Shown here: positions 1 through 35,190 of the stretch, piece by piece
How positions within the stretch are numbered: the stretch's first letter is position 1
Layout: the number at the start of each line of letters is the position of its first letter
IMG/VR virus record: IMGVR_UViG_3300021420_000021
Location: 30,267 to 94,266 of that record
Source: a virus
Length of the DNA: 64,000 nucleotides
Direction: 5' to 3' (one strand)
Position numbers and translations under genes: made by a program
Notes under the pieces: model-generated
What the model was told of the DNA's origin: nothing
The model's database searches: none
The model's input: only the letters and a program-made list of their open reading frames with translations

Positions 1-105
1 CGACAATTTGGAAGACCTTGTAAAGAACTTATGATACAGTCCGATCTCATGGGCGACCATGAGTGCGATTCTAGTGGAAACTAGAAATCCTAAACAATAA
101 TACCA
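1..105 (+). mobile_element. 3' part of a group I intron (P7 3' strand, P9-type hairpins) with the tail of an intron-encoded ORF, inside the probable capsid gene
   Basis: GATACAGTCC (33-42) resembles the group I S element (AGAUAUAGUCC). Two GNRA-capped hairpins follow: CTCATGG-GCGA-CCATGAG (46-63) and TTCTAGT-GGAA-ACTAGAA (69-86). Frame 1 reads ...ELMIQSDLMGDHECDSSGN*, as when intron ORFs run into the core. The 3' splice site is not resolvable. Confidence 0.65.
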
Positions 106-498
106 GTTGGACAAGCTAAGATGGACGAACTCGTCTCGGTCGATTTGACCGAAGTTATCGAGTTGCCGTCTAGCGGAGTGCAATTCTTTCAGACTAACCT
201 AGTCACTCAAAGTAACAATTACAAGTCTGTTGCTGGACTTGTAGGTCTTCGGACTTACATTTTTGGCAGAGACGGCGTATTTGCTATCAATCTAGGTGCA
301 AAAGGCGACACTGGCTATGGTGATGGCGAGTGGCGGAATATAGAATGCAATATTATGCAGAACGTTGCACCGACCGTCGCGGACCCCGAAGGCCTCATAC
401 CGGGATGGACTTCTTACAGAGTTCATTTCACCACGAGCCTCGGACCCGATACTACGATTCGGCAGAGACAAATTGATGCCGCTTCAGCCATAAGCTAA
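103..498 (+). CDS. probable major capsid protein, C-terminal exon
   Basis: No SD before ATG 121, and the frame is open from ~94 after the intron-like sequence. The C-terminus (RTYIFGRDGVFAINL...ADPEGLIPGWTSYRVHF) resembles N4-gp56-like capsid ends, and the ORF precedes decoration-type genes. Confidence 0.55.
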   Translation, partial: PVGQAKMDELVSVDLTEVIELPSSGVQFFQTNLVTQSNNYKSVAGLVGLRTYIFGRDGVFAINLGAKGDTGYGDGEWRNIECNIMQNVAPTVADPEGLIPGWTSYRVHFTTSLGPDTTIRQRQIDAASAIS

Positions 499-522
499 AC
501 AAAATAAAGGACTTAAATGTTC

Positions 523-551
523 TTGACTTGTTTGATGTTGTGTGGTAAAGT
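523..551 (+). promoter_or_regulatory. sigma70-like promoter
   Basis: TTGACT-17 bp-TAAAGT with TG extension. Confidence 0.6.
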
Positions 552-573
552 AGTACAGATGTAAATTTCGATA

Positions 574-627
574 GGGGTAGGGTGCCGCAATCACCTTACC
601 CTGATTCGATAGCTCTATTGCGGAGAG
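574..627 (+). promoter_or_regulatory. kissing-hairpin / pseudoknot element overlapping the SD (copy 1)
   Basis: Stem 574-584/592-602; loop CCGCAAT is perfectly complementary to ATTGCGG (617-623), itself the loop of CTCT/AGAG, overlapping SD GGAGAG. Confidence 0.7.
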
Positions 628-635
628 AAAATAAC

Positions 636-1220
636 ATGTTTGAAAAAGGCAATACTTTTAGTCAAGGCCGAAAAATTGGTTCGCACAGTGAACAAGAAAT
701 TCAAGCTTTAAAAGAACGCAATGCCGCCCGAAAGGGTCAACCTATCACATCTGAGAAAATGTTAGCCGCTTCGCGAGCGGGGTGCAAAGCAATGAACGCT
801 GTTAGGCACTTAAAAGCAGGCCATATTTTAGAAAATGTTGATTCTGTCGCCCTTACAGGTGATTGTCACATTTGTGGTCAAGTGCCGATTAAGGTAATGA
901 AGCATAGAGCGAATGGCGCTTTACGCGATCAATATTTATGTTGGGTTGGAACTCGTTGCAGAGAGACAGACGGAGCACCTGCCAAAGTCGCGTATAAGAA
1001 TCAAGCATTAGAGATGTGGAACAATCAACATGGCAATTGTGCTTTGTGTTACAAATACATGGTTCGCGCAGGAAACACCAACGAAGGTGCAACGTTAGAT
1101 CATTGTCACACGACCGGATTTATACGCGGCTTTATTCATCAAGGCTGCAATAAAGGTTTGGGTCACTTTTTAGACGACCCTGAAGTTTTAAAAATGGCTG
1201 CTGAGTATTTACTTAGATAG
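636..1220 (+). CDS. endonuclease VII-like (His-Me) free-standing homing endonuclease
   Basis: CALC...LDHCHTTGFIRGFIHQGCNKGLGHFLDDPEVLKMAAEYL; SD GGAGAG before ATG 636. Confidence 0.85.
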   Translation: MFEKGNTFSQGRKIGSHSEQEIQALKERNAARKGQPITSEKMLAASRAGCKAMNAVRHLKAGHILENVDSVALTGDCHICGQVPIKVMKHRANGALRDQYLCWVGTRCRETDGAPAKVAYKNQALEMWNNQHGNCALCYKYMVRAGNTNEGATLDHCHTTGFIRGFIHQGCNKGLGHFLDDPEVLKMAAEYLLR

Positions 1221-1240
1221 CCGGAAAAGGAACATGAATT

Positions 1241-2464
1241 ATGCCTATCCCCGCACAAACAACGGGTCTTGGAACCGCCGTCGCAGTCACGTTGGCGGGA
1301 ACTGGAGTCATACAGGAAAAGACACCTGTTGCTGGAACTCAAGGAATTTCGCACTACAATGTAACTCTGTCTTTGTCCGGGACCGGATTTCCGAGCACTG
1401 TCGCGGTCAGTGCTTCGACCATTGACGTTGCTGGAAACGTCGTTAGTAATGGCGGCGCTTCAGGATCGACGCAATTGGGCGCAGCCGCCGCAGCTTATGC
1501 TATTCTTGCCGCTGCTGGAATTACTAATACTGGCGCGACTGTCATTTCTGGCGGAAATATCGGTTCGTATCCGACTGCAACTGAAACCGGATTTACCGGG
1601 GCAAATTTTGTTCCTCCGGCGACGACTGATAACGCTGATGCACAAGCAGGACTCGCCGCCGCTTTGGTAACATATAACGCGCTATCGGCTTTGACTTTTA
1701 CGTCTTTGTCCGCGTCTTCGGCCAATTTAAGCACTCTTGGTAACGGAAGTACAGCTTCGACTTATACCGCAGGTAATTATTCTGCTGGCACAAGTATGGA
1801 CATTCCGACGAGTATTACTCTTGACGCGCAAGGTAATCCCGGCGCGGTATTTATATTTAAAGCCGGATCGACACTGACTCTCGAATCTAACGCGTCTGTT
1901 CTTCTTGTCAACGGCGCTCAAGCCGCGAACGTTTATTGGCTGGTCGGTAGTTCATTTACTTCGATCTTTGGAACTGTGTCCGTCATGAACGGAAATATTC
2001 TTGCCAATACAAGTATTACTCTTGGCGGTGGCGTCCTGAATGGCCGAGCGCTCGCCGGAATTGTGACTTCATCTGGCGCAGTTACAATTGCGACTGCCGA
2101 AGCAATTACAGTTCCCGGATTTTCGCAAAGCACAGCTTCAGGAATGAACGCAGTTAGTTATAATGCATGGCCGCGTTTGGTTGGCGGCGTTACACAGACT
2201 CGCGATGGTGTGACTCGTAATGCGCAAGATGTCACTGTTTCTTATCCGGCTCCGACTTCAGGTCCGGGCGGCGTTGCTGATGTGTCAGATGTCAATAATC
2301 CATTCCTTGTTACCGCGTATCGTGTCGGTCAAGCGTGGGTCGAATTCTTTTCTCCAACTTTCGGAAATTCCGAACCATTGGCGACAGATATTGAGTCGAA
2401 TTTGACCGAAGGTTTTCCGACCGATAAGATACAGGCCCAACTTTTAGTAAACGTCGTGAAGTAG
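1241..2464 (+). CDS. virion decoration-type protein with inserted DUF3494 ice-binding-like domain
   Basis: nt ~1472-2116 encode YAILAAAGITNTGATVISGGNIG...ITLDAQGNPGAVFIF...LLVNGAQAANVYWLVGSS...GNILANTSITLGGGVLNGRALA; the flanks are paralogous to the next two ORFs. Confidence 0.85.
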   Translation: MPIPAQTTGLGTAVAVTLAGTGVIQEKTPVAGTQGISHYNVTLSLSGTGFPSTVAVSASTIDVAGNVVSNGGASGSTQLGAAAAAYAILAAAGITNTGATVISGGNIGSYPTATETGFTGANFVPPATTDNADAQAGLAAALVTYNALSALTFTSLSASSANLSTLGNGSTASTYTAGNYSAGTSMDIPTSITLDAQGNPGAVFIFKAGSTLTLESNASVLLVNGAQAANVYWLVGSSFTSIFGTVSVMNGNILANTSITLGGGVLNGRALAGIVTSSGAVTIATAEAITVPGFSQSTASGMNAVSYNAWPRLVGGVTQTRDGVTRNAQDVTVSYPAPTSGPGGVADVSDVNNPFLVTAYRVGQAWVEFFSPTFGNSEPLATDIESNLTEGFPTDKIQAQLLVNVVK

Positions 2465-2483
2465 TTTAAAGAAAAGAGAAATC

Positions 2484-3041
2484 ATGTCTAATCCAGTTCC
2501 TCCCCATAATCCTACTGACGGATTGTCGTCTGCGTGTTTTGTGCAGCTATCAGGCACAGGCGTTATTGTCGATCCGAAGCAGACAAGACCGCCGTCTGCT
2601 AATTACCCAAATGCAGGACATTATGAAGTTACTTTGAGTGTTTCTGGCGCAAATGGTTTAGCGTCTTCTGTCGTTATAACACCATCACTTGTTGATGTGT
2701 CTAATACAGCGTATGCTTCGACTGCTGCGTCTTGGGTTTATCGGTCGTATAACGATCCTCAAGTAACCGAAGCAAGTCTTCCAACAGGACCGGGAAATCC
2801 GACTAATCTTGCGCCGAAGCCGACGCAGACTGCGAAACTTGCGTCTGTTAGCGCATCTGGAGCATCAACAGTAACCGTCACTGCGCTGTCTCCGGGCAAA
2901 GCAATTGTATCCGCAATTTACCCCACCTTCGATAACGCAGAAGGAAATGTTACAGTTGGCAATCTTGGCGGACCCTTGGCCGGAACTACAGTGCCGAAAG
3001 ATTATATTTTTTCATTTCTCGATGTAAAAATATTTCCGTAA
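2484..3041 (+). CDS. Ig-like virion decoration-type protein (paralog of 1241 without the insert)
   Basis: Shared motifs T.GL...V.L.GTG, HY.VTLS.SG, DV, SYN, VTA...G.A.V. Confidence 0.6.
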   Translation: MSNPVPPHNPTDGLSSACFVQLSGTGVIVDPKQTRPPSANYPNAGHYEVTLSVSGANGLASSVVITPSLVDVSNTAYASTAASWVYRSYNDPQVTEASLPTGPGNPTNLAPKPTQTAKLASVSASGASTVTVTALSPGKAIVSAIYPTFDNAEGNVTVGNLGGPLAGTTVPKDYIFSFLDVKIFP

Positions 3042-3059
3042 ATTTAGCAGAAAGGTATT

Positions 3060-3647
3060 ATGCCGCCTCTTTTTCCAAGTTCGCAGAACAGCTTAAATTA
3101 TACAACGGGCGTAGGAATTCCGGCCCGAGTTGCCCTTAGTGGGACCGCAGCCGGAGGTAATAGTGTGACACAGCAACAGTCCGCCACGATTGACGGAACT
3201 TCGTATGTTGTTCTTCAAATGCGTGGTCCTGAATACTATCTTCTGATGACTTTGCCGTCTGATACGTGTCAATTGAGTGCCGGGATTGTAGATGTCGCTG
3301 GCAATGCGAGCACGGTTGATGCGAGTAATACGTTTACTTATACATCGTGGAACGCGAGTTCGGTCGTATTATCGATGTCGAATACTGGAAGTGCATCAGG
3401 ATCGGAGTTCGTATCTTTTTCTGCCGCAAATATGGGTACAGGCTGGATGCCTTCGAATCTGGCATGGGAAAGTAAAGTTGTAACTATCTCTTCGTCTGGT
3501 TTGATTACTGCGAACGCAAAAGGCCATGCGGTAGTGGAGTGTCGCTACCCCTTAAGTAAAGCATCGAACAATCCCGTTACGAATGGTTTAAATACGACAG
3601 ACAACCCACAATTTATTGCGGCATTGCTTGTAATTCGAGTCAATTAA
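3060..3647 (+). CDS. Ig-like (Big_2-like) virion protein, third paralog
   Basis: TTGVG...VALSGT, DVAGN, VVTISSSGLITANAKGHAVV. Confidence 0.55.
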   Translation: MPPLFPSSQNSLNYTTGVGIPARVALSGTAAGGNSVTQQQSATIDGTSYVVLQMRGPEYYLLMTLPSDTCQLSAGIVDVAGNASTVDASNTFTYTSWNASSVVLSMSNTGSASGSEFVSFSAANMGTGWMPSNLAWESKVVTISSSGLITANAKGHAVVECRYPLSKASNNPVTNGLNTTDNPQFIAALLVIRVN

Positions 3648-3673
3648 TTATACATGATATAATAGGAGGAACT

Positions 3674-3991
3674 ATGTCTGATGATCGGAACTATATTGCT
3701 AGTTTAGAAGAGGCGCTCGAAGATATCACTGAAGATAATCTTAGATTGCGCAACACAAACAGAATTCTCCGGGCCGTAAATTCAGGACTTCGGTCGAAAC
3801 TTGAAATCGCGCATAAGAACGACGAAGAGTTTGTTTCGGCGTGTCAATGGGATGAAGAAATCGACGCTCGCGCCGCACAAATTGATTCAGAATCTGACTC
3901 GACAGGATATGTCGAGTATGTCGAAGAGAAATCTGACTATCCGCAAGGATTTCAAGAATATTGGGGAATTGGCAACACAAGTTATACGTAA
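3674..3991 (+). CDS. hypothetical coiled-coil acidic protein
   Basis: SD AGGGAG; TGATATAAT upstream; heptad-like N-terminal half. Confidence 0.6.
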   Translation: MSDDRNYIASLEEALEDITEDNLRLRNTNRILRAVNSGLRSKLEIAHKNDEEFVSACQWDEEIDARAAQIDSESDSTGYVEYVEEKSDYPQGFQEYWGIGNTSYT

Positions 3992-3994
3992 TTA

Positions 3995-4166
3995 AGTGAA
4001 CAAGGTTAAGAAAAAGTGGATTACTATTTCTTAGTCTAATCGGACGGACGGTCTAGAACGACCGCGAGATGTTAGTCGTTGTTGCGCCTGATCCGCGCAA
4101 AGAGACGCTGATTTCACTAGTGCAAGGGCTTCTCTGGGAGCCTGAACCGGAGGAGCACAAGCACTA
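3995..4166 (+). ncRNA. candidate two-domain structured RNA with complementary loops
   Basis: Closing helix 3995-4000/4113-4118; arms 4003-4037, 4049-4064 and 4071-4112; loops GGATT (4018-4022) and GATCC (4090-4094) are complementary; second hairpin domain 4118-4166. Confidence 0.55.
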
Positions 4167-4187
4167 CAATTTAAACGGAGGAGGAAA

Positions 4188-4667
4188 ATGAAGTTACTAA
4201 ACCGTATTAGAACTTGGTTGCTTTATAAGTTATGGAAGCCAAAGGATAAATCACCCGAAGAACTAGAGTTTGCGAGAGAAAAAGGTAAGATTTTAACTCA
4301 GCAAAAACAATGGGATGATCAAAGACATGTCGGATGTTCACACCTTAAAGGCGGGAATGTAGGGAACGTGTTTGGCGGCGATTTCAGTAAGTTTGCCCAA
4401 GGTTGGTATAACGGACAAAATGGGCAATACGCAGTAATCAAGCATCAGATGGCGAATGGCGATATTTATGTAAACTGTTTACGATGCGGTAAGAAGTGGA
4501 AAAAGCCAATAAGATCGTCATTTAAGAAAGAACAAGATTACTTAATAGCTCTTGCAGAGTACGAAACTGCTGTGAAGTTTCCTACGAATAATAGCATGTC
4601 TACATCGATTCAATTACGATTTTCTGACAATGGCGAAGCGCATCGTAAAGCGATAGAGAATAGTTAA
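4188..4667 (+). CDS. Zn-binding hypothetical protein (paralog of 5936..6577)
   Basis: CSHLKGG...QYAVIKHQM.NGDI.V.CLRCGK.W; strong SD GGAGGAGG. Confidence 0.75.
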   Translation: MKLLNRIRTWLLYKLWKPKDKSPEELEFAREKGKILTQQKQWDDQRHVGCSHLKGGNVGNVFGGDFSKFAQGWYNGQNGQYAVIKHQMANGDIYVNCLRCGKKWKKPIRSSFKKEQDYLIALAEYETAVKFPTNNSMSTSIQLRFSDNGEAHRKAIENS

Positions 4668-4693
4668 ATTTCGCAGTGTCATGAACTGTGAAC

Positions 4694-4736
4694 GGGCGAT
4701 AGCCTTCTACTATCGCCCACTCTTTAGAAGGGAGAG
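4694..4736 (+). promoter_or_regulatory. kissing-hairpin / pseudoknot element overlapping the SD (copy 2)
   Basis: Stem GGGCGATAG/CTATCGCCC; loop CCTTCTA is complementary to TAGAAGG (4725-4731), the loop of CTCTT/GAGAG. Confidence 0.75.
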
Positions 4737-4740
4737 AAGT

Positions 4741-5280
4741 ATGCGAATTGAAACAAACATAAGAAGCATTAAAGATTTATCCAACATGAAATTTGGTAGA
4801 TTGATACCGATTATGCCTATTGCAAAAGATAGGTTTAATAAGACGATATGGCTAATGTTGTGCGATTGCGGCAAGACAAAAGCTATAAACAGCGCAAATT
4901 TGAGTTCAAAACATACTCAGAGTTGCGGGTGTTTACGCGATGAGTGTCAGTCTGCGCTTAAACATGGTGCTAGTTGTCGCGGTAAGATAACGCCTGAGTA
5001 TCAAGCTTTTAGAGCGGCGAAAGAACGCTGTACTAACCCAAAGAATAAAGCATATAAATATTATGGCGGAAGAGGAATCGAGTTTCGTTTTGTTAGTTTT
5101 GAAGAGTTTTTTGCGGAGATAGGTTTACGACCCGACGCGATGTCGCTAGATAGGATTGAGGTAAACGGGCATTATGAAAAAGGGAATGTTCGTTGGGCGA
5201 CTCAAAGTCAGCAAGTACAAAATCGTAGATCACAGCCTGAAATTCTTTTACAGTATGCGGCAGCATTAGGAGGAGTGTGA
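4741..5280 (+). CDS. HNH homing endonuclease
   Basis: CDCG...SCGC; RC.NP...YYGGRGI...SLDRIEVNGHYEKGNVRWAT; start moved to the ATG after the SD. Confidence 0.85.
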   Translation: MRIETNIRSIKDLSNMKFGRLIPIMPIAKDRFNKTIWLMLCDCGKTKAINSANLSSKHTQSCGCLRDECQSALKHGASCRGKITPEYQAFRAAKERCTNPKNKAYKYYGGRGIEFRFVSFEEFFAEIGLRPDAMSLDRIEVNGHYEKGNVRWATQSQQVQNRRSQPEILLQYAAALGGV

Positions 5281-5951
5281 GTCAACCAACACAAGAGGAG
5301 ATTCAACGTCTTCAGGGAACACGGCTCAATACGGAGAAAGCACCGTGGCAGACGTATTCTGAGGAGTTGGATGTGAAGATGTCGCCAGAGTTAGCGGCAG
5401 AAGTTGCCGACTACAGCACGCGATATCACGACTCAGAATCTAGTAATCAGAATAAAGAAGAATTGGCCCGATGGCAAGAGCAGAATTATGACGCGATGGG
5501 CGAATATCGATGGGCAAGTCCAGAAGAATATGCCGATATTGAAGCTCGAATCGGACGAATTATGCATCACAGCGAATTCGTGACGCGATTGAAGAAGATC
5601 GGCGTTCGATGTGCGTTACGCGATCATCCGCAAACAGATAAATTGACTTTGCTTGTACAACGCGGAAATGATGTTTTAAAGCCATATGAAGTTGGATGTT
5701 GGATAAAGAATGGATTCGCGCCAGAATTTTCAGTCATGGGATTTGATGAGCATGGAGTTCCACTCGCAGAGCGTTACAGGGGTTGGCGCACCGCGATTCT
5801 TCAGCTTATTCTTAAACAAGTATTGACGGAAGAACAAGCGCATAAAGAATTTGGAAGTACAGATCGATGTTGTGCCGGGAGATATAATTCAATACTTCAC
5901 GGCATCAGGAATACAGTAGATAAAGAGGAGGAGCAATGTCAGACGAAGTAA
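5277..5951 (+). CDS. hypothetical protein (head cluster)
   Basis: 224 aa, SD AGGAG, overlaps both neighbours. Confidence 0.7.
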   Translation: MSQPTQEEIQRLQGTRLNTEKAPWQTYSEELDVKMSPELAAEVADYSTRYHDSESSNQNKEELARWQEQNYDAMGEYRWASPEEYADIEARIGRIMHHSEFVTRLKKIGVRCALRDHPQTDKLTLLVQRGNDVLKPYEVGCWIKNGFAPEFSVMGFDEHGVPLAERYRGWRTAILQLILKQVLTEEQAHKEFGSTDRCCAGRYNSILHGIRNTVDKEEEQCQTK

Positions 5952-6577
5952 AGAAACATTCTGCGACAGAAGAGTTGGCGCAGTTAGACTTACAGATTAA
6001 GCGCGAAGAACTTGAACAGTTGAAATTGTCAAGACAAGAGCGCGAATATTCGATCAAAGATTTGAAAGGAAGACTAGCCGAGCGCGACGTAAAAGAACTT
6101 CAGAAGAAAGAAGATCGTGAAGCGCAAGGCCGGACTTTCGCGCAGCAGAGAGGAACTGACGAAGCTCGTTGGAAGATTTGTACGCATAAAAAGGGCGGAA
6201 ACGTCAGTCAGCGCGATATGCGTGTTCTGAGTACAGGCGGAAACGCCGCGCAATACGCAGTTATGAAGCACCAGATGATTAATGGTGATATTTGGGTCCG
6301 TTGTTTGCGTTGCGGTAAAACTTGGTCGCCGCCGCTGAAATCGAAGTTCTATTTTGATAATCGCGGTAAGCAAGTTCCGGCGCATTCGGGCGAATTTAAC
6401 AAAGACCGTTTTGACGCAGCAGTTCTTGATTATCAACGCGCAGTTGCATTCGAAACGAATAATACGATGTCCGGATCGGTCCAAGTTCGGTTCTCCCGAT
6501 GGGACGAAAAGAGTCAGCAACTCGTTGATGCATCGAAAGACTACGCCGAATCGATTGCCGATACGACATTGCGCTAG
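5936..6577 (+). CDS. coiled-coil plus Zn-binding protein (paralog of 4188..4667)
   Basis: CTHKKGG...QYAVMKHQMINGDIWVRCLRCGKTW...FETNNTMS. Confidence 0.75.
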   Translation: MSDEVKKHSATEELAQLDLQIKREELEQLKLSRQEREYSIKDLKGRLAERDVKELQKKEDREAQGRTFAQQRGTDEARWKICTHKKGGNVSQRDMRVLSTGGNAAQYAVMKHQMINGDIWVRCLRCGKTWSPPLKSKFYFDNRGKQVPAHSGEFNKDRFDAAVLDYQRAVAFETNNTMSGSVQVRFSRWDEKSQQLVDASKDYAESIADTTLR

Positions 6578-6628
6578 AATTAACGTCGCCGCTGAGTGCG
6601 GTTTGCGCCCCTAAAACGGGAACACTCT

Positions 6629-6667
6629 TCGGGCGGGTTTGATTTAAAGATCGCCCGCCCGATTTTT
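6629..6667 (+). terminator. intrinsic terminator
   Basis: TCGGGCGGG...CCCGCCCGA followed by TTTTT. Confidence 0.7.
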
Positions 6668-6687
6668 ATATTGTGTAGAAAGTAGAA

Positions 6688-7773
6688 ATGGCAACTTCAA
6701 ACAGCACTCTGACCTTGCAAGAATTAGTGGACGACTGTAAATCAATGGCCGATCTTGCGCCCGCGTTAGCGACAGGCGGATATTCTGATCAACCCGCGCT
6801 TTCAATCGCCAATGACGTGATGCAGAATATGGTCGCGGGCGGGCCTGAAGGTCAGCCGTTTAACTGGAAATGGAATCGCATGGTCGAGACTCCATTTTTC
6901 ATTAATTCGTGGCAGCAAGATTATTTCATCCCGAACCTTGTTACACTTGGATGGCTTGAAAGTTGCACCGCATCTTGTTTCTCTACGACACAATTTCCCA
7001 AGCCGATTTTACCGATTGAAGTAAAACGAGACTTGTTGATCGTTAGTTTACAGACTTCGCAAACTGCGAAGATTTGCTGGATGCAAAATGACACTATGTT
7101 GGCAGGAACTTGGGGGCAAACAGAACAAGCTTCAGCAACAGGATTGGCGAATCCGGGTCCGGGCGTTGTTATCACGAATCCGGCAAATCAGCCGTCAATG
7201 CCGATCAATCCTACGACACAGGTGAAAGACGCTTTTGGCAATTTGTGGGTTGTGACGACTTACGGGACTTGCGGCAGTTCGAATCCATTTGCGACGAATC
7301 TTAATCCAGCATTTCCGACATTGCAGAATCAAAGCATTGTATCGACTACAGTAAACGATGGAACTGTTGTTTGGACCGCAGTTAATCCGAAAGGTCAAGG
7401 ATTTCGAATCAATCCACTTCCCGGCCAAACCGGGCCAGTTTGGTTAATTCAACCAGTCGGCCAGAACCGAGTTCAAAGACTGACGAGTTACGGACAATTT
7501 CTTGATCCGATTCCAGATGATTTTTATACATTTTTCAAACAAGGATTTTTCGCCCAATGTTATCGCCGTTCGCCCGATCCAAAAGTCCGGGCGAAGTTCG
7601 AAATGGAATATCAGCTATGGCAAAAAGCATTAGTCAATGCCGTCAGACAAGGCGCACGAGAAATCGATGATTGGGGCTTTTATCCAACATCGAATGTCAT
7701 GGATGGAACTGGATACGGAGGTTGGGTTGGTGCAACGCCCGCACTACCGTATGGCCCCTGGCAAGGTTATTAG
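6688..7773 (+). CDS. head-tail adaptor / tail tubular A-like protein with carbohydrate-binding-like insert
   Basis: Position; PFNWKWN...QDY as in adaptor proteins; insert DAFGNLWVV...DGTVVWT; paralog of 7972. Confidence 0.55.
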   Translation: MATSNSTLTLQELVDDCKSMADLAPALATGGYSDQPALSIANDVMQNMVAGGPEGQPFNWKWNRMVETPFFINSWQQDYFIPNLVTLGWLESCTASCFSTTQFPKPILPIEVKRDLLIVSLQTSQTAKICWMQNDTMLAGTWGQTEQASATGLANPGPGVVITNPANQPSMPINPTTQVKDAFGNLWVVTTYGTCGSSNPFATNLNPAFPTLQNQSIVSTTVNDGTVVWTAVNPKGQGFRINPLPGQTGPVWLIQPVGQNRVQRLTSYGQFLDPIPDDFYTFFKQGFFAQCYRRSPDPKVRAKFEMEYQLWQKALVNAVRQGAREIDDWGFYPTSNVMDGTGYGGWVGATPALPYGPWQGY

Positions 7774-7975
7774 AATCAATAATTTACAGACAATTTCACT
7801 ATATTGTGTACAAAGATGTTGATCATGAGCATGAGAAACCCGGCACGCATCGTGGCATTCTTTGCGCATGGTGTAACACAGCACTCGGCAGATTAGAGCC
7901 GAATATGCAGAAAGTCTTAGAATATCTGGCCGAGTATGGAAAATACTACGAGCCTCCGCTAAAGGATTTAAATGC
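7774..7975 (+). pseudogene. truncated endonuclease VII remnant
   Basis: Only VDHEHE...HRGILCAWCNTALGRLE...LEYL remains; no N-terminal CxxC and no plausible start. Confidence 0.65.
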
Positions 7976-8940
7976 CCGCTTTGAGCACAATTACGCTAGA
8001 AATGACGATGGATTGGGCGAAACGCCTTAGTTTTAACCGCAACTTTGGAATCGGTAATTCTCTTGAACCCGCGCTTACGTCTGCAAACATGGTCGCTCAG
8101 ACGATTCTTTCGCCTCCATTTGACTTCTGGTGGAATTCTCAAGAGATAAGCTTTACGTGTTCGACAGCGCCTCCGGTCGCGAACATTACAAACGTCGCGA
8201 TTACAAGTAAAATTGTAACTCTGTTGATGATAAATACGTTTGTTCAGAATGATCAAGTTTTAATCGCGTCTTTAGTGACTGCGGCGTTTCTTAATGGCGC
8301 AGTATTGACTGTTTTGACGGCATCGCCAACACAGATTACGGCTTATTTTAATCATGCCGACTATGTTTCTGCCGCCGATACAGGGACTGCAACAAAAAGC
8401 ACGACTCAAGATTATACAGTCAATATCCCTAATTTTTCTCACATCGAACATGCGTCTGTATACGATATATTTACGAACAGTCAGACGACCGGAACTGTCG
8501 GCAAGAAGTGGTGGGAACTAGAAGTAAAGAATAATCTGTCTTTAGATTCTACTCTCGGTCGGCCTCAGTTTATCAATCCGCAATTTGAAGATGTTAATAG
8601 TAACGTTACATTTCGAATGATGCCTGCGCCGAGTCAGAATTACCCTGTCGCACTTCACGTTCAGTTAGCGCCGCCGTTGTTTACGAGTTTGAATCAAACA
8701 TGGTCGCCGCTTCCTGACTTTATGCAACACATTTATTCATGGGGTTTTTTAAGTCTGATGTGGGCCTTTGCGGATGATCCGCGTGTTGGTTTCGCGAATC
8801 AAAAATTTACATCTAGTCTGCTCGCCCGCGCAGATGGGCTATCTCAAGAAGAACGCGACACGTTTCTCAACAATTGGAATATGTTGACTGGAACACAGCA
8901 ACAACAACGAGCACAAGGAACGCAGATGCGAGGTATGTAG
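7972..8940 (+). CDS. second adaptor / tail tubular A-like paralog
   Basis: STITL..., PAL..AN, PFDFWWN, QDY and PD motifs shared with 6688. Confidence 0.55.
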   Translation: MPALSTITLEMTMDWAKRLSFNRNFGIGNSLEPALTSANMVAQTILSPPFDFWWNSQEISFTCSTAPPVANITNVAITSKIVTLLMINTFVQNDQVLIASLVTAAFLNGAVLTVLTASPTQITAYFNHADYVSAADTGTATKSTTQDYTVNIPNFSHIEHASVYDIFTNSQTTGTVGKKWWELEVKNNLSLDSTLGRPQFINPQFEDVNSNVTFRMMPAPSQNYPVALHVQLAPPLFTSLNQTWSPLPDFMQHIYSWGFLSLMWAFADDPRVGFANQKFTSSLLARADGLSQEERDTFLNNWNMLTGTQQQQRAQGTQMRGM

Positions 8941-9254
8941 TGGCTCAACGACAGATCATAAATGGCGGCTTCCAGCTTCCTAACGGGTCGCCACTAGCAC
9001 TCGGGTATTTAAAAATGCGGTTAAATGTTGATGCTACGACCGGAGTAGATCAGATTGTCGCGGGCCGAGTTGTAACTGTTCCACTTGATAGTAATGGGAA
9101 TATATCTGGCGCAGTTTTAGTTTGGCCGAATGATCAGCTTATTCCAATTAATACGGTTTATGTAACTCAAGCATTTAGCGCATCAGGTCAACTATGTTGG
9201 CATGAAGAATTAAGCATTCCTTCGGGCGCAGGATCATATAGTTTGTCAGGATAA
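8940..9254 (+). CDS. virion protein, paralog of the N-terminal domain of 9263
   Basis: GTG start overlapping the upstream stop; GGFQ..G..LA.GYL.M.L, LDS.G, VW.NDQ, ASGQL. Confidence 0.65.
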   Translation: MAQRQIINGGFQLPNGSPLALGYLKMRLNVDATTGVDQIVAGRVVTVPLDSNGNISGAVLVWPNDQLIPINTVYVTQAFSASGQLCWHEELSIPSGAGSYSLSG

Positions 9255-9262
9255 GGAAATAC

Positions 9263-10447
9263 ATGTCAGCACCAACTAAGGTCCAGCTTATCGGCGGACA
9301 TTTTCAAGACCTTTCCGGAAATGTTTTAGCAAATGGTTATCTTCGGATGTTTCTTAGTTCTGATGAATTGGTAACAGGGGTCGGCTTTATTTGCAGCGGT
9401 GTTTTTGTACAAATACAATTAGATTCTGCGGGAAGTGTTGCAAGTTCAACAAGCACGCCGCCTGCTGCAAATCAGTTTGTTTGGGGCAATGATCAAATGG
9501 CCCCGACTAATAGTTATTATCGTGTTTTTGGCTATGCCGCAAGCGGGCAACTTGCTTTCGGCCCCGATAATCAGCAAGTTATCGGCAATGGCGGAACGTT
9601 CGATGTCGGTACTTGGATACCAAATTCTGTCATAAGTTGGCAACCGCCGATTCAGCCGTTAACACTTGAAGTAAACAGTGTATTAGCTGGATCACAAACG
9701 CTATTGAATCTTAACGCAGGATCAGGAATAACTTTGACCGATAATGGATCGGGTCAAGTTACTGTCGCATCTAGTCTCGCAGCGCTATTATTAGAAACGA
9801 ACGGAACGCCGAATACATCGCAGACATTATTGAATTTAGCCGCAGGTACAGGTATTACGATTACAAATCCTAGCGGCGGTGAAGTTTTGATTTCGTCTAC
9901 TACATCTGGATCACCTTCCGGATCGAATGTAATATTTATCGATGAAGCACAAAAAAATGCAGGTTCCGGATTTAATGGCGCAGCTACTGATTGTATTATT
10001 GTTCGAGTTCCTGCTAGTTCTGTAGCCGCAATAGGTAGTAAAGTCATAGTTACGATCAATTTTTCTGCGCTCGGATCAAGTTCAATAAAGATGACTCCTG
10101 TATTACGACGGACTCTTCCGGGCGGAACAGCTTTTACCGATACGACTGCAATTACATTTGGTGGCAGCGCTACGCCTACTTTTACAGGAAGTACTTTAAC
10201 GTATACATCAGACGATGTTTCTTGTACTATCGATAGTGCCCATGATAATTATTTCATATTTAATGAAACAACTGTGACAGGTACGCCCGCCTACTATACT
10301 TTTGTAGAAAATTATATTACTAAATGTAGCGGAGAAGTAACTAACGGCGTGAATTATTCTACCGTGTCATCGATACCGAGTTTACCGACTTTGCTCAGTT
10401 TGTTGTCTACACAAAGTACTCTTGTTTCAAGTATCGTAATTGGATAA
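9263..10447 (+). CDS. tail fibre/appendage protein
   Basis: Attachment-type N-terminus, repeated SQTLLNL.AG.GIT.T, S/T/G-rich beta C-terminus. Confidence 0.6.
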   Translation: MSAPTKVQLIGGHFQDLSGNVLANGYLRMFLSSDELVTGVGFICSGVFVQIQLDSAGSVASSTSTPPAANQFVWGNDQMAPTNSYYRVFGYAASGQLAFGPDNQQVIGNGGTFDVGTWIPNSVISWQPPIQPLTLEVNSVLAGSQTLLNLNAGSGITLTDNGSGQVTVASSLAALLLETNGTPNTSQTLLNLAAGTGITITNPSGGEVLISSTTSGSPSGSNVIFIDEAQKNAGSGFNGAATDCIIVRVPASSVAAIGSKVIVTINFSALGSSSIKMTPVLRRTLPGGTAFTDTTAITFGGSATPTFTGSTLTYTSDDVSCTIDSAHDNYFIFNETTVTGTPAYYTFVENYITKCSGEVTNGVNYSTVSSIPSLPTLLSLLSTQSTLVSSIVIG

Positions 10448-16095: not shown

Positions 16096-16659
16096 GTGGG
16101 AAATCGCCAAGTCTGGCCTTCGAGCCTGTTTCCTCTTCGTGGAGATTTGAGTGCCGAAGCAGGCGCAACGACAGTCAAAGTTATCGGAATCCAAGGCACG
16201 CCCGTCTCTAACGTCGCGCCGACTACGACGAATCAGACATTGATTTATAATAGTGGGACTAATCAATACGCGCCGGGAATTCTTTTACCCGAACTCGTTG
16301 CTTCTGTCGATTTAACCCGATTACATGCAAACGCGTCCGGAACACTTTATGCGAATGCGGCAGTTTCGGGCCAATATGACATCGGCGCTTATGTAGTCTG
16401 TACACAATCGTCGTCTGTTGGCGACATTCCGGGAATTCTTATTACGTGGACCGACGCGGATACAGGAATTGTAAAAACGAATGAGATAACAAGTCCGACA
16501 GATGGAACTGTAGTTGGAAATTATAATAGCGGACTAATGCGAGTTAGCGCCGAAATTGCGACGAATATTAATTGGGCGACGACAGGATATGTCGGCTATG
16601 TCGCTTATGGCGACGTATTTTATTCGCTTCATTTGAGTTGTGTTCTTGTGTCGGTGTAG
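16096..16659 (+). CDS. virion/tail protein
   Basis: SD AGGAG plus GTG 16096; LRGDLS...VIGIQG.PVS fibre-like motif. Confidence 0.6.
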   Translation: MGNRQVWPSSLFPLRGDLSAEAGATTVKVIGIQGTPVSNVAPTTTNQTLIYNSGTNQYAPGILLPELVASVDLTRLHANASGTLYANAAVSGQYDIGAYVVCTQSSSVGDIPGILITWTDADTGIVKTNEITSPTDGTVVGNYNSGLMRVSAEIATNINWATTGYVGYVAYGDVFYSLHLSCVLVSV

Positions 16660-30135: not shown

Positions 30136-30564
30136 ATGTTTAAGTTTTTCCGGCGTACTTGTCTTTATATTCTTATAATTCCTGTTTTATTCACTTTTCT
30201 CGGCGCATTGAGTAATCAAATCGTATTACAAGCGAATCACGACACTTTTCCTGTAATGATCAGCAACGCAAAATTATTTGAACATAAACACGCATTGGCG
30301 AAAATTGCTGAATCGGATTCAGACGCCGATGCTGTTGAAAAAGCGACATTACGATTAGTCGAACTTGATCATGGATTTCTCGATGATACTCATATTGTTA
30401 TGACCGACAAGACGCATTTCAATTTTTTAGCCGACGTATTTGATTTCCGGCATGAAGGAATTGAAAGCATTGGCGATTTATTACTCAAACTTGGCGAATT
30501 TACTTGGACTTACGTGCCGTTTATTTTCGTCTTTGCTGTGATCGGTAAATTGAAGAATCTATAA
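30136..30564 (+). CDS. membrane protein (DUF5317-like)
   Basis: N..V..AN...PV, H......T....LAD, SIGDLL. Confidence 0.5.
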   Translation: MFKFFRRTCLYILIIPVLFTFLGALSNQIVLQANHDTFPVMISNAKLFEHKHALAKIAESDSDADAVEKATLRLVELDHGFLDDTHIVMTDKTHFNFLADVFDFRHEGIESIGDLLLKLGEFTWTYVPFIFVFAVIGKLKNL

Positions 30565-34959: not shown

Positions 34960-35190
34960 ATGACAACAGCAAATCAGATAACTTACCCGAAGATGTATAT
35001 CGAAGGCCCGGATACGAATGGCAGTACAAATCTTTATGTCGCAGATGTAAATTCTCAAGATCAACTTTTGACAGGTGGCGGAACTGGAATCGCGATATTG
35101 AAAATGGGGCCACGAAGTATGATTACAGGCCCGAGCGGTTATATAGCTTCGGTCGATTCTCTAGGTAATCTCGCAACAAGCAACGGTTAA
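34960..35190 (+). CDS. small protein made of the module that begins 35205
   Basis: QI.YPK..I.GP...ADVNSQ.QLLT. Confidence 0.6.
   Translation: MTTANQITYPKMYIEGPDTNGSTNLYVADVNSQDQLLTGGGTGIAILKMGPRSMITGPSGYIASVDSLGNLATSNG

Follow-up and report, generated by a model that had tools for sequence, protein, structure and literature searches.

Phage genomes commonly carry homing endonuclease genes as selfish passengers, and only for a few T-even cases is it understood how the phage tolerates them. In T-even phages, such genes are repressed by hairpins that sequester the ribosome binding site (RBS), as described for I-TevI, I-TevII, I-TevIII, segB, and Aeh1 mobE (PMC2988022). This study analyzed a different RNA leader in a 64,000-nucleotide stretch of viral DNA (IMG/VR record IMGVR_UViG_3300021420_000021, positions 30,267 to 94,266; hereafter the window, numbered from its first letter). 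The leader precedes two nuclease genes of the window and consists of a GC-rich hairpin, H1, and a weak pyrimidine/purine hairpin, H2, that contains the Shine-Dalgarno (SD) sequence; the 7-nucleotide loop of H1 is exactly complementary to bases in or beside H2. Judged from sequence comparisons, free-standing homing-type nuclease genes of these phages share a genuine leader RNA that is modular and covaries strongly. The role that we consider most probable for it is translational repression by an anti-SD sequence that is split between the H1 loop and one arm of H2.

All window features described here lie on the plus strand. In leader 1, H1 spans 574-602 (stem 574/575-584 with 592-601/602, 10-11 bp including one or two G.U pairs; -16.5 kcal/mol in RNAfold), and its loop is CCGCAAT (585-591). 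H2 follows after a gap of 11 bases at 613-627, where CTCT (613-616) and AGAG (624-627) form 4 bp around the 7-nucleotide loop ATTGCGG (617-623), whose reverse complement is exactly the loop of H1. The SD sequence GGAGAG (622-627) overlaps both the loop and the stem of H2, and the ATG at 636 opens an Endonuclease VII (endoVII)-family gene (636-1220; Pfam PF02945 Endonuclease_7, 5e-16). In leader 2, H1 spans 4694-4718 (stem 4694-4702 with 4710-4718, 9 bp; -14.4 kcal/mol) with the 7-nucleotide loop CCTTCTA (4703-4709), and a linker of 1 nucleotide leads to the H2/SD region at 4720-4736. Here CTCT (4720-4723) and AGAG (4733-4736) enclose a 9-nucleotide loop (4724-4732); within it, TAGAAGG (4725-4731) complements the H1 loop exactly. 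H2 has 4 bp and can be extended to 6 bp, in which case it overlaps this complement. The SD sequence lies at approximately 4731-4736, and the ATG at 4741 opens an HNH-type endonuclease gene (4741-5280; phrog_374, 2e-49). The two encoded proteins had no detectable pairwise similarity. A third copy of the leader was found outside the window, at genome positions 16226-16263, before a gene with a NUMOD3 motif, a weak GIY-YIG match, and a match to a "homing endonuclease" PHROG.

An earlier note on this DNA had claimed a two-hairpin element repeated before the endoVII and HNH genes, with a second loop of 7 nucleotides that exactly complements the first. We scanned the 94-kb genome with a strict descriptor (stem of at least 7 bp, a whole loop of 6-8 nucleotides complemented within 25 nucleotides, and a start codon within 16 nucleotides). 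The scan returned exactly three sites, each before a nuclease gene, compared with a mean of 0.32 in shuffled genomes, and none of the 60 shuffles reached three. The repeated element is real. The exact complement is present at both window sites, whereas the stated loop length applies to site 1 but not to site 2, where the loop has 9 nucleotides.

To place the leader in its lineage, relatives were collected through the major head protein, the gene for which lies upstream of site 1. Its product is 82% identical to the counterpart in Tunturiibacter phage Tunturi_3, a cultured relative from tundra soil that infects Acidobacteriota, and it has 235 relatives in IMG/VR; the lineage comprises soil phages of the Acidobacteria type with genomes of approximately 95 kb. 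By searching 80 capsid-centred loci, by searching whole records with a covariance model, and by two pattern scans, we collected at least 35 leaders in this lineage, 29 of which were parsed first, with six more from a scan independent of a further hairpin, H0, described below. The H1 and H2 helices were analyzed with our own descriptor scripts, as the MAFFT alignment was not structure-consistent there, and pair counts on the alignment were used for H0 alone.

The 29 parsed leaders contain 25 different H1 loops, and the whole loop is complemented in every leader. The complementary segment, 6-8 bases long, terminates within the 5' half of the SD sequence, and loop pairing covers the first 1-3 bases of the SD core in each case. 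The 3' half of the SD sequence serves as the 3' arm of H2 in 29/29. The arms of H2 also covary with the SD variant, as in CTCT/AGAG versus TTCT/AGAA and others. Because the first scan had demanded complementarity, two selection-independent tests were added. A descriptor without this requirement yielded a bimodal distribution, with a background of 1-4 nucleotides and a second group of 5-8 nucleotides. When hairpins were anchored on the conserved upstream H0 word alone, a complement of at least 6 nucleotides was present in 16 of 23, compared with 1% of permuted loop/downstream pairs. Covariation in homologues, named beforehand as a test of the claim that pairing is kept while the sequence varies, was also found: the endoVII homologues G001 (66% identity) and L287 (68%) and the HNH homologue L273 (BLASTP E 3e-17) carry leaders of this architecture with other compensated loop pairs. 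The selection-independent tests and the homologues therefore bear the claim out, and we infer that the loop pairing forms in RNA in vivo. In one look-alike (L265, 2553-2830, minus strand), the H1 3' arm, H2, and the SD sequence are as in true leaders and the loop is non-complementary; it precedes a 76-codon open reading frame (ORF) without a Pfam match and may be a natural negative control or a recombinant or decayed leader.

The leader appears to be bound to this lineage rather than universal, because it was lacking at 27 loci of HNH homologues from other phage lineages, in T5, and in Tunturi_3. In Tunturi_3, the scan gave matches at chance level; in a 50-kb stretch of T5 with the tRNA region and heg genes, no leader preceded the six heg genes inspected. 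Megablast of window positions 1-8000 against isolated phages returned no match. In T5 (L264; record positions 35078-35170, minus strand), the T-loop TTCAATT of tRNA-Phe is exactly complementary to the 7 bases before the GGAG of T5.071, a single case that could be due to chance.

Downstream ORFs could be assessed for 31 leaders. Family searches assigned 28 of them to nucleases (21 Endonuclease_7, three GIY-YIG/NUMOD3, two HNH-type, and two with a weak endoVII PHROG match); of the remaining three, the L273 fragment is a BLASTP homologue of the window HNH protein, and two had no family match. The element thus sits almost exclusively before nuclease genes of several families. The proposal that it travels with nuclease cassettes is borne out at site 2. 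In the relatives L064, L080, L083, and L093, this site is empty, with the upstream stop codon adjoining the downstream SD sequence and the flanking genes adjacent. In the window, the interval between the upstream stop codon (4665-4667) and the SD sequence of the downstream gene (5269-5275) is filled exactly by H0, H1, H2, and the HNH ORF (4668-5268). The comparison with these empty sites shows that leader and ORF are one inserted unit. Orthologous endoVII genes have different leader classes (site 1 compared with L287), and an identical H1 loop was found with different nuclease families among the parsed leaders. The position of the leader inside the insert, the class swaps in orthologues, and the loop common to several families together show that leaders travel with the cassettes and are exchanged among them. 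At L126 (7917-8063), the leader is intact but the ORF behind it is interrupted by stop codons; this may be a nuclease gene in decay whose leader has survived.

We then estimated which folds the leaders can adopt. H1 is very stable (-12 to -22 kcal/mol). The geometry test used A-form fibre coordinates, which reproduced textbook groove-crossing distances, and provides a rough estimate rather than a three-dimensional prediction. A cis kissing complex, in which H1, the loop-loop helix, and H2 are all closed, requires approximately 45-67 Å, a distance that can be spanned by the linkers of 4/29 leaders. The linker at site 1 is long enough, whereas most leaders have only 0-3 nucleotides between H1 and H2, and the complex is impossible in 25/29, including site 2 with its single nucleotide. 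An H-type pseudoknot, in which the 5' arm of H2 serves as the crossing loop, is geometrically feasible in 28 of the 29, including site 2: pairing of the loop with downstream bases has covariation in its favour, and the connector is long enough to cross the shallow groove of stem 1. The description in the earlier note as kissing hairpins may therefore apply to four leaders, site 1 among them, but is not supported by the geometry as the general fold. Because H1, the loop helix, and H2 cannot coexist in most leaders and the longest H2 overlaps the loop complement, the data argue for an RNA with two states. In this model, an H-type pseudoknot alternating with H2 fits better than kissing hairpins in general, and most leaders most likely alternate between H1 plus H2 and H1 plus the pseudoknot.

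Most leaders also contain a third hairpin, H0, which was absent from the first reading of the sequence. H0 lies directly upstream of H1 and has 7-8 bp; in leader 2 it spans 4670-4692, with 7 bp including one G.U pair and a 9-nucleotide loop (4677-4685) that carries the palindromic hexamer TCATGA (4679-4684). In a MAFFT alignment of 16 leaders, both sides of the stem change in 6/7 pairs, a score reached by 0/500 shuffles. The stem has 12 G.U against four A.C, an excess that favours a sense-strand RNA. The loop has 9 nucleotides in most leaders and contains TAATTA, TTATAA, or TCATGA. Positions 2 and 5 of the hexamer are complementary in 24/24 (A/T 17, T/A 4, C/G 3; 0/20000 permutations), with no single-change intermediates, and these two positions are unable to pair inside one loop. 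Site 1, G001, and a few others lack the palindromic H0 class and are preceded instead by a sigma-70-like promoter. At site 1, the promoter-like sequence spans 523-551 (-35 at 523-528, a 17-nucleotide spacer, and a TG-extended -10 at 546-551); this assignment comes from a consensus scan with 9/12 matches plus TG and is a consensus match alone. TTGACA-17-TATAAT promoters are present in the slots of relatives homologous to site 1. The word TAATTACC was considered as a general promoter word and rejected, as it occurs at chance frequency. Outside the window, at genome positions 9241-9310, TAATTACC is followed by a sequence like the H1 3' arm of another leader, with no clean hairpin; this may be a decayed leader.

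On the proposed mechanism, the SD sequence would be covered from two sides by a split anti-SD, the H1 loop on one side and the pyrimidine arm of H2 on the other. The RNA would adopt one of two states, H1 together with either H2 or the pseudoknot, whose crossing loop would be the 5' arm of H2, and part of the SD sequence would be paired in each; in a few leaders with long linkers, such as that at site 1, a true kissing complex could form. Such partial pairing should hold down nuclease translation on read-through transcripts from highly expressed neighbours, for instance the capsid gene. Repression is suggested by the occlusion of the SD sequence together with the T-even precedent. In a soil metatranscriptome, 80% of the sampled words of window positions 300-5400 were present, and one contig joined the spliced capsid exon to window position 103 and continued to 1145 through leader 1 into the endoVII ORF. 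Neither H1 of the window was called an intrinsic terminator by a simple scan, and this contig reads through site 1; in relatives, the 10 nucleotides after H1, a segment that is also the H2 arm, contain 2-7 T. RNA contigs cover little of 4641-5084, which includes leader 2 and the 5' part of the HNH ORF, and nothing was inferred from this gap. The contig through leader 1 fits nuclease ORFs riding on abundant structural-gene RNA, for which T-even phages employ their RBS-sequestering hairpins (PMC2988022).

Several points weigh against repression by a split anti-SD. The model assigns no function to H0 or its palindromic loop and leaves both unexplained. By itself, H2 has only marginal stability (-9 to +2.5 kcal/mol), and nearest-neighbour estimates for the loop duplexes are modest (-1 to -9 kcal/mol). 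As approximately half of the SD sequence is paired in either single state, repression may be partial. L065, with a 13-bp H1 and a 4-nucleotide connector, cannot form the pseudoknot unless H1 partly opens. The RNA evidence consists of assembled contigs, which cannot prove a single transcript. Furthermore, many nuclease cassettes in relatives and several genes of this genome lack the leader: translational coupling to the upstream ORF, with no leader, is seen for two further HNH genes, and for the LAGLIDADG gene of the capsid intron a promoter of its own is followed by a very short leader.

In a rival version, the loops would pair between two RNAs and repression would depend on RNA concentration. 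Leaders might dimerise by their palindromic H0 loops with H1/H2-loop kisses "hand in hand," or upstream transcripts ending after H1 might act on read-through mRNAs. This explanation, which we regard as unlikely, draws on the H0 hexamer, since N and N' are complementary in every T-N-A-T-N'-A core loop, yet pairing between them inside a single loop is impossible. A palindromic H0 is accompanied by linkers of 0-3 nucleotides, too short for cis kissing, and the four kissing-capable leaders lack the palindrome; H2 is conserved though too weak to stand alone; and sites 2 and 3 of one genome belong to two hexamer classes, as would be expected if copies must not cross-pair. However, pairing between molecules is not required, because the cis pseudoknot is feasible in nearly every leader. 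An all-A/U kiss of six bases should have very little strength, no more than two evolutionary events may lie behind the three hexamer classes, H0 loops without a palindrome are present in other leader classes, and the read-through at H1 described above speaks against transcripts that end there. A self-dimerising mRNA, in which the H0 loops of two copies of the same leader kiss and each H1 loop pairs with the H2 loop of the other, locking both RBSs in coaxial stacks, is doubtful to a similar degree. If it formed, nuclease translation would fall as the nuclease's own mRNA accumulates, a dosage control at the RNA level, and the loop and hexamer "addresses" would keep different cassettes of one genome from cross-reacting.

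The mutual exclusion of H2 and loop pairing in most leaders would also suit an activator, in which H2 represses and pairing of the H1 loop with the SD flank opens H2 and partly frees the SD sequence. Once the pseudoknot forms, the anti-SD arm of H2 turns into its crossing loop, which leaves the start codon and the 3' SD purines unpaired; the pseudoknot before repZ/repA of the IncI-alpha and IncB plasmids provides a precedent. We nevertheless consider an activator quite improbable, as loop pairing covers the start of the SD core in every leader, no leader peptide was seen, and activation has no evident rationale before genes that are usually kept silent. Finally, the hairpin modules might be recombination or insertion points for cassette shuffling, in the manner of the PeSL elements of T4-like phages, with loop complementarity lacking any RNA function. 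The leader is indeed part of the inserted unit, the class swaps in endoVII orthologues and the use of the same loop with different nuclease families point to modular exchange, and H1 resembles the generic GC-rich intergenic hairpins of the lineage. Recombination sites, however, need sequence identity, whereas almost every copy has a loop of its own, compensated without exception; G.U pairs function only in RNA of the sense strand; and the complement always adjoins the SD sequence. A signal at the DNA level thus appears very improbable.

The genes upstream of site 1 were also analyzed. The major head gene is split, with the parts for amino acids 1-212 and 195-347 lying approximately 850 bp apart (window 43-495, genome 28818-30308). 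Within the insert lies a LAGLIDADG ORF served by a TTGACA-17-TATAAT promoter of its own, and Rfam searches of the insert found no group I intron; as metatranscriptome contigs join the upstream capsid exon to window position 103, the insert is spliced out. In the relatives L055, L068 (3135-3276), L095, L097, and L001 (2940-2990), HNH cassettes after the capsid gene have a sigma-70-type promoter that overlaps a different hairpin; the promoter spacer and the -10 element form its 5' arm, and the hairpin covers the SD sequence and the start codon. In these cassettes, read-through RNA would be locked and RNA from their own promoter would be open, which is the logic of I-TevI and mobE. Empty slots downstream of the capsid gene in approximately 40 relatives (L054-L129) contain a generic GC-rich hairpin of the GGGGCGG type after the capsid stop codon, and this intergenic hairpin, found across the lineage, seems to be the source of the leader's H1. 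A sub-threshold Mu-gpT-DE match (20.9 bits) was observed at L083 (11063-11126).

The suggestion that the motif is undescribed was examined in Rfam and in the literature. Rfam 15 at gathering thresholds gave no match in the window, and permissive scans of the three genome copies and six copies from relatives gave sub-threshold matches alone. RF02980 (freshwater-2) matched the third genome copy only (21.7 bits against a threshold of 49.9; E 4.6), was absent from six other copies, and was rejected; RF02996 (int-alpA) had no match at E<=10 in any stretch scanned. The comparison thus agrees with the suggestion in that no family matches the leader. In full-text literature, no loop-to-SD pseudoknot or kissing leader of homing endonucleases was found, although matching candidates may be among the more than 10,000 unnamed viral RNA candidates catalogued in PMC10690425. 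An "unusual hairpin" has been published for seg43(25) of Aeromonas phage 25, but its loop lacks complementarity to the RBS region, and it is not an instance.

If it represses translation by a split anti-SD, this leader, common to endoVII-type, HNH, and GIY-YIG genes, would be a second, structurally different solution to the tolerance of homing endonuclease genes, namely a portable RNA module in which the anti-SD is split and the loop "address" evolves freely. Its naturally compensated variants constitute a ready test set for the control of translation initiation by pseudoknots and kissing loops, and orthogonal translational locks could be derived from the leader. With its palindromic loop, H0 also suggests that mRNA might dimerise in a phage.

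Similar to the T-even hairpins, the leader is an RNA structure before a homing endonuclease gene that pairs the SD sequence, which lies in a hairpin stem in all 29 parsed leaders, and the proposed rationale is the same, namely that the nuclease remains untranslated on long read-through transcripts. The T-even element, however, is a single hairpin with an embedded late promoter, from which late transcripts escape, whereas here the anti-SD is divided between a loop and a short arm. The spacing in this leader leaves no room for a promoter between its parts, and the promoter-like site at site 1 lies upstream of the whole leader. The loop that differs in nearly every copy and the third hairpin are further differences from the T-even hairpins, and a T-even-like layout is used by other HNH cassettes in this same lineage. 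The PeSL elements of T4-like phages are composite terminator/promoter cassettes defined by conserved sequence and recombination (PMC2839356, PMC4122927). Both they and this leader are small repeated stem-loop regulatory modules beside variable genes that are exchanged between loci, but no loop-to-SD pairing has been described for PeSLs.

H0 resembles the dimerisation initiation site of HIV-1, a 9-nucleotide loop with a 6-nucleotide palindrome, in loop length, in the self-complementary core of six central bases, and in variants that stay palindromic; it differs in lying in a phage mRNA leader and in having a core that is all or mostly A/U. The E. coli rpsO/S15 leader and the T4 gene 32 pseudoknot are two-state hairpin/pseudoknot operators bound by the encoded protein in autoregulation. 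The present leader would share with them a hairpin loop pairing with RBS bases, in alternation with a form of two hairpins. Because one leader type serves three unrelated nuclease families here, a protein ligand specific to one gene is unlikely. In the IncI-alpha and IncB plasmids, the repZ/repA pseudoknot activates translation and is countered by antisense RNA, and ColE1 RNA I/RNA II and CopA/CopT are kissing-loop systems. No leader peptide was seen in the phage leader. What the phage leader would share with these plasmid systems is a stable hairpin loop that pairs beside the SD sequence, fully complementary loops of 6-7 nucleotides, and a loop sequence that would serve as the specificity address.

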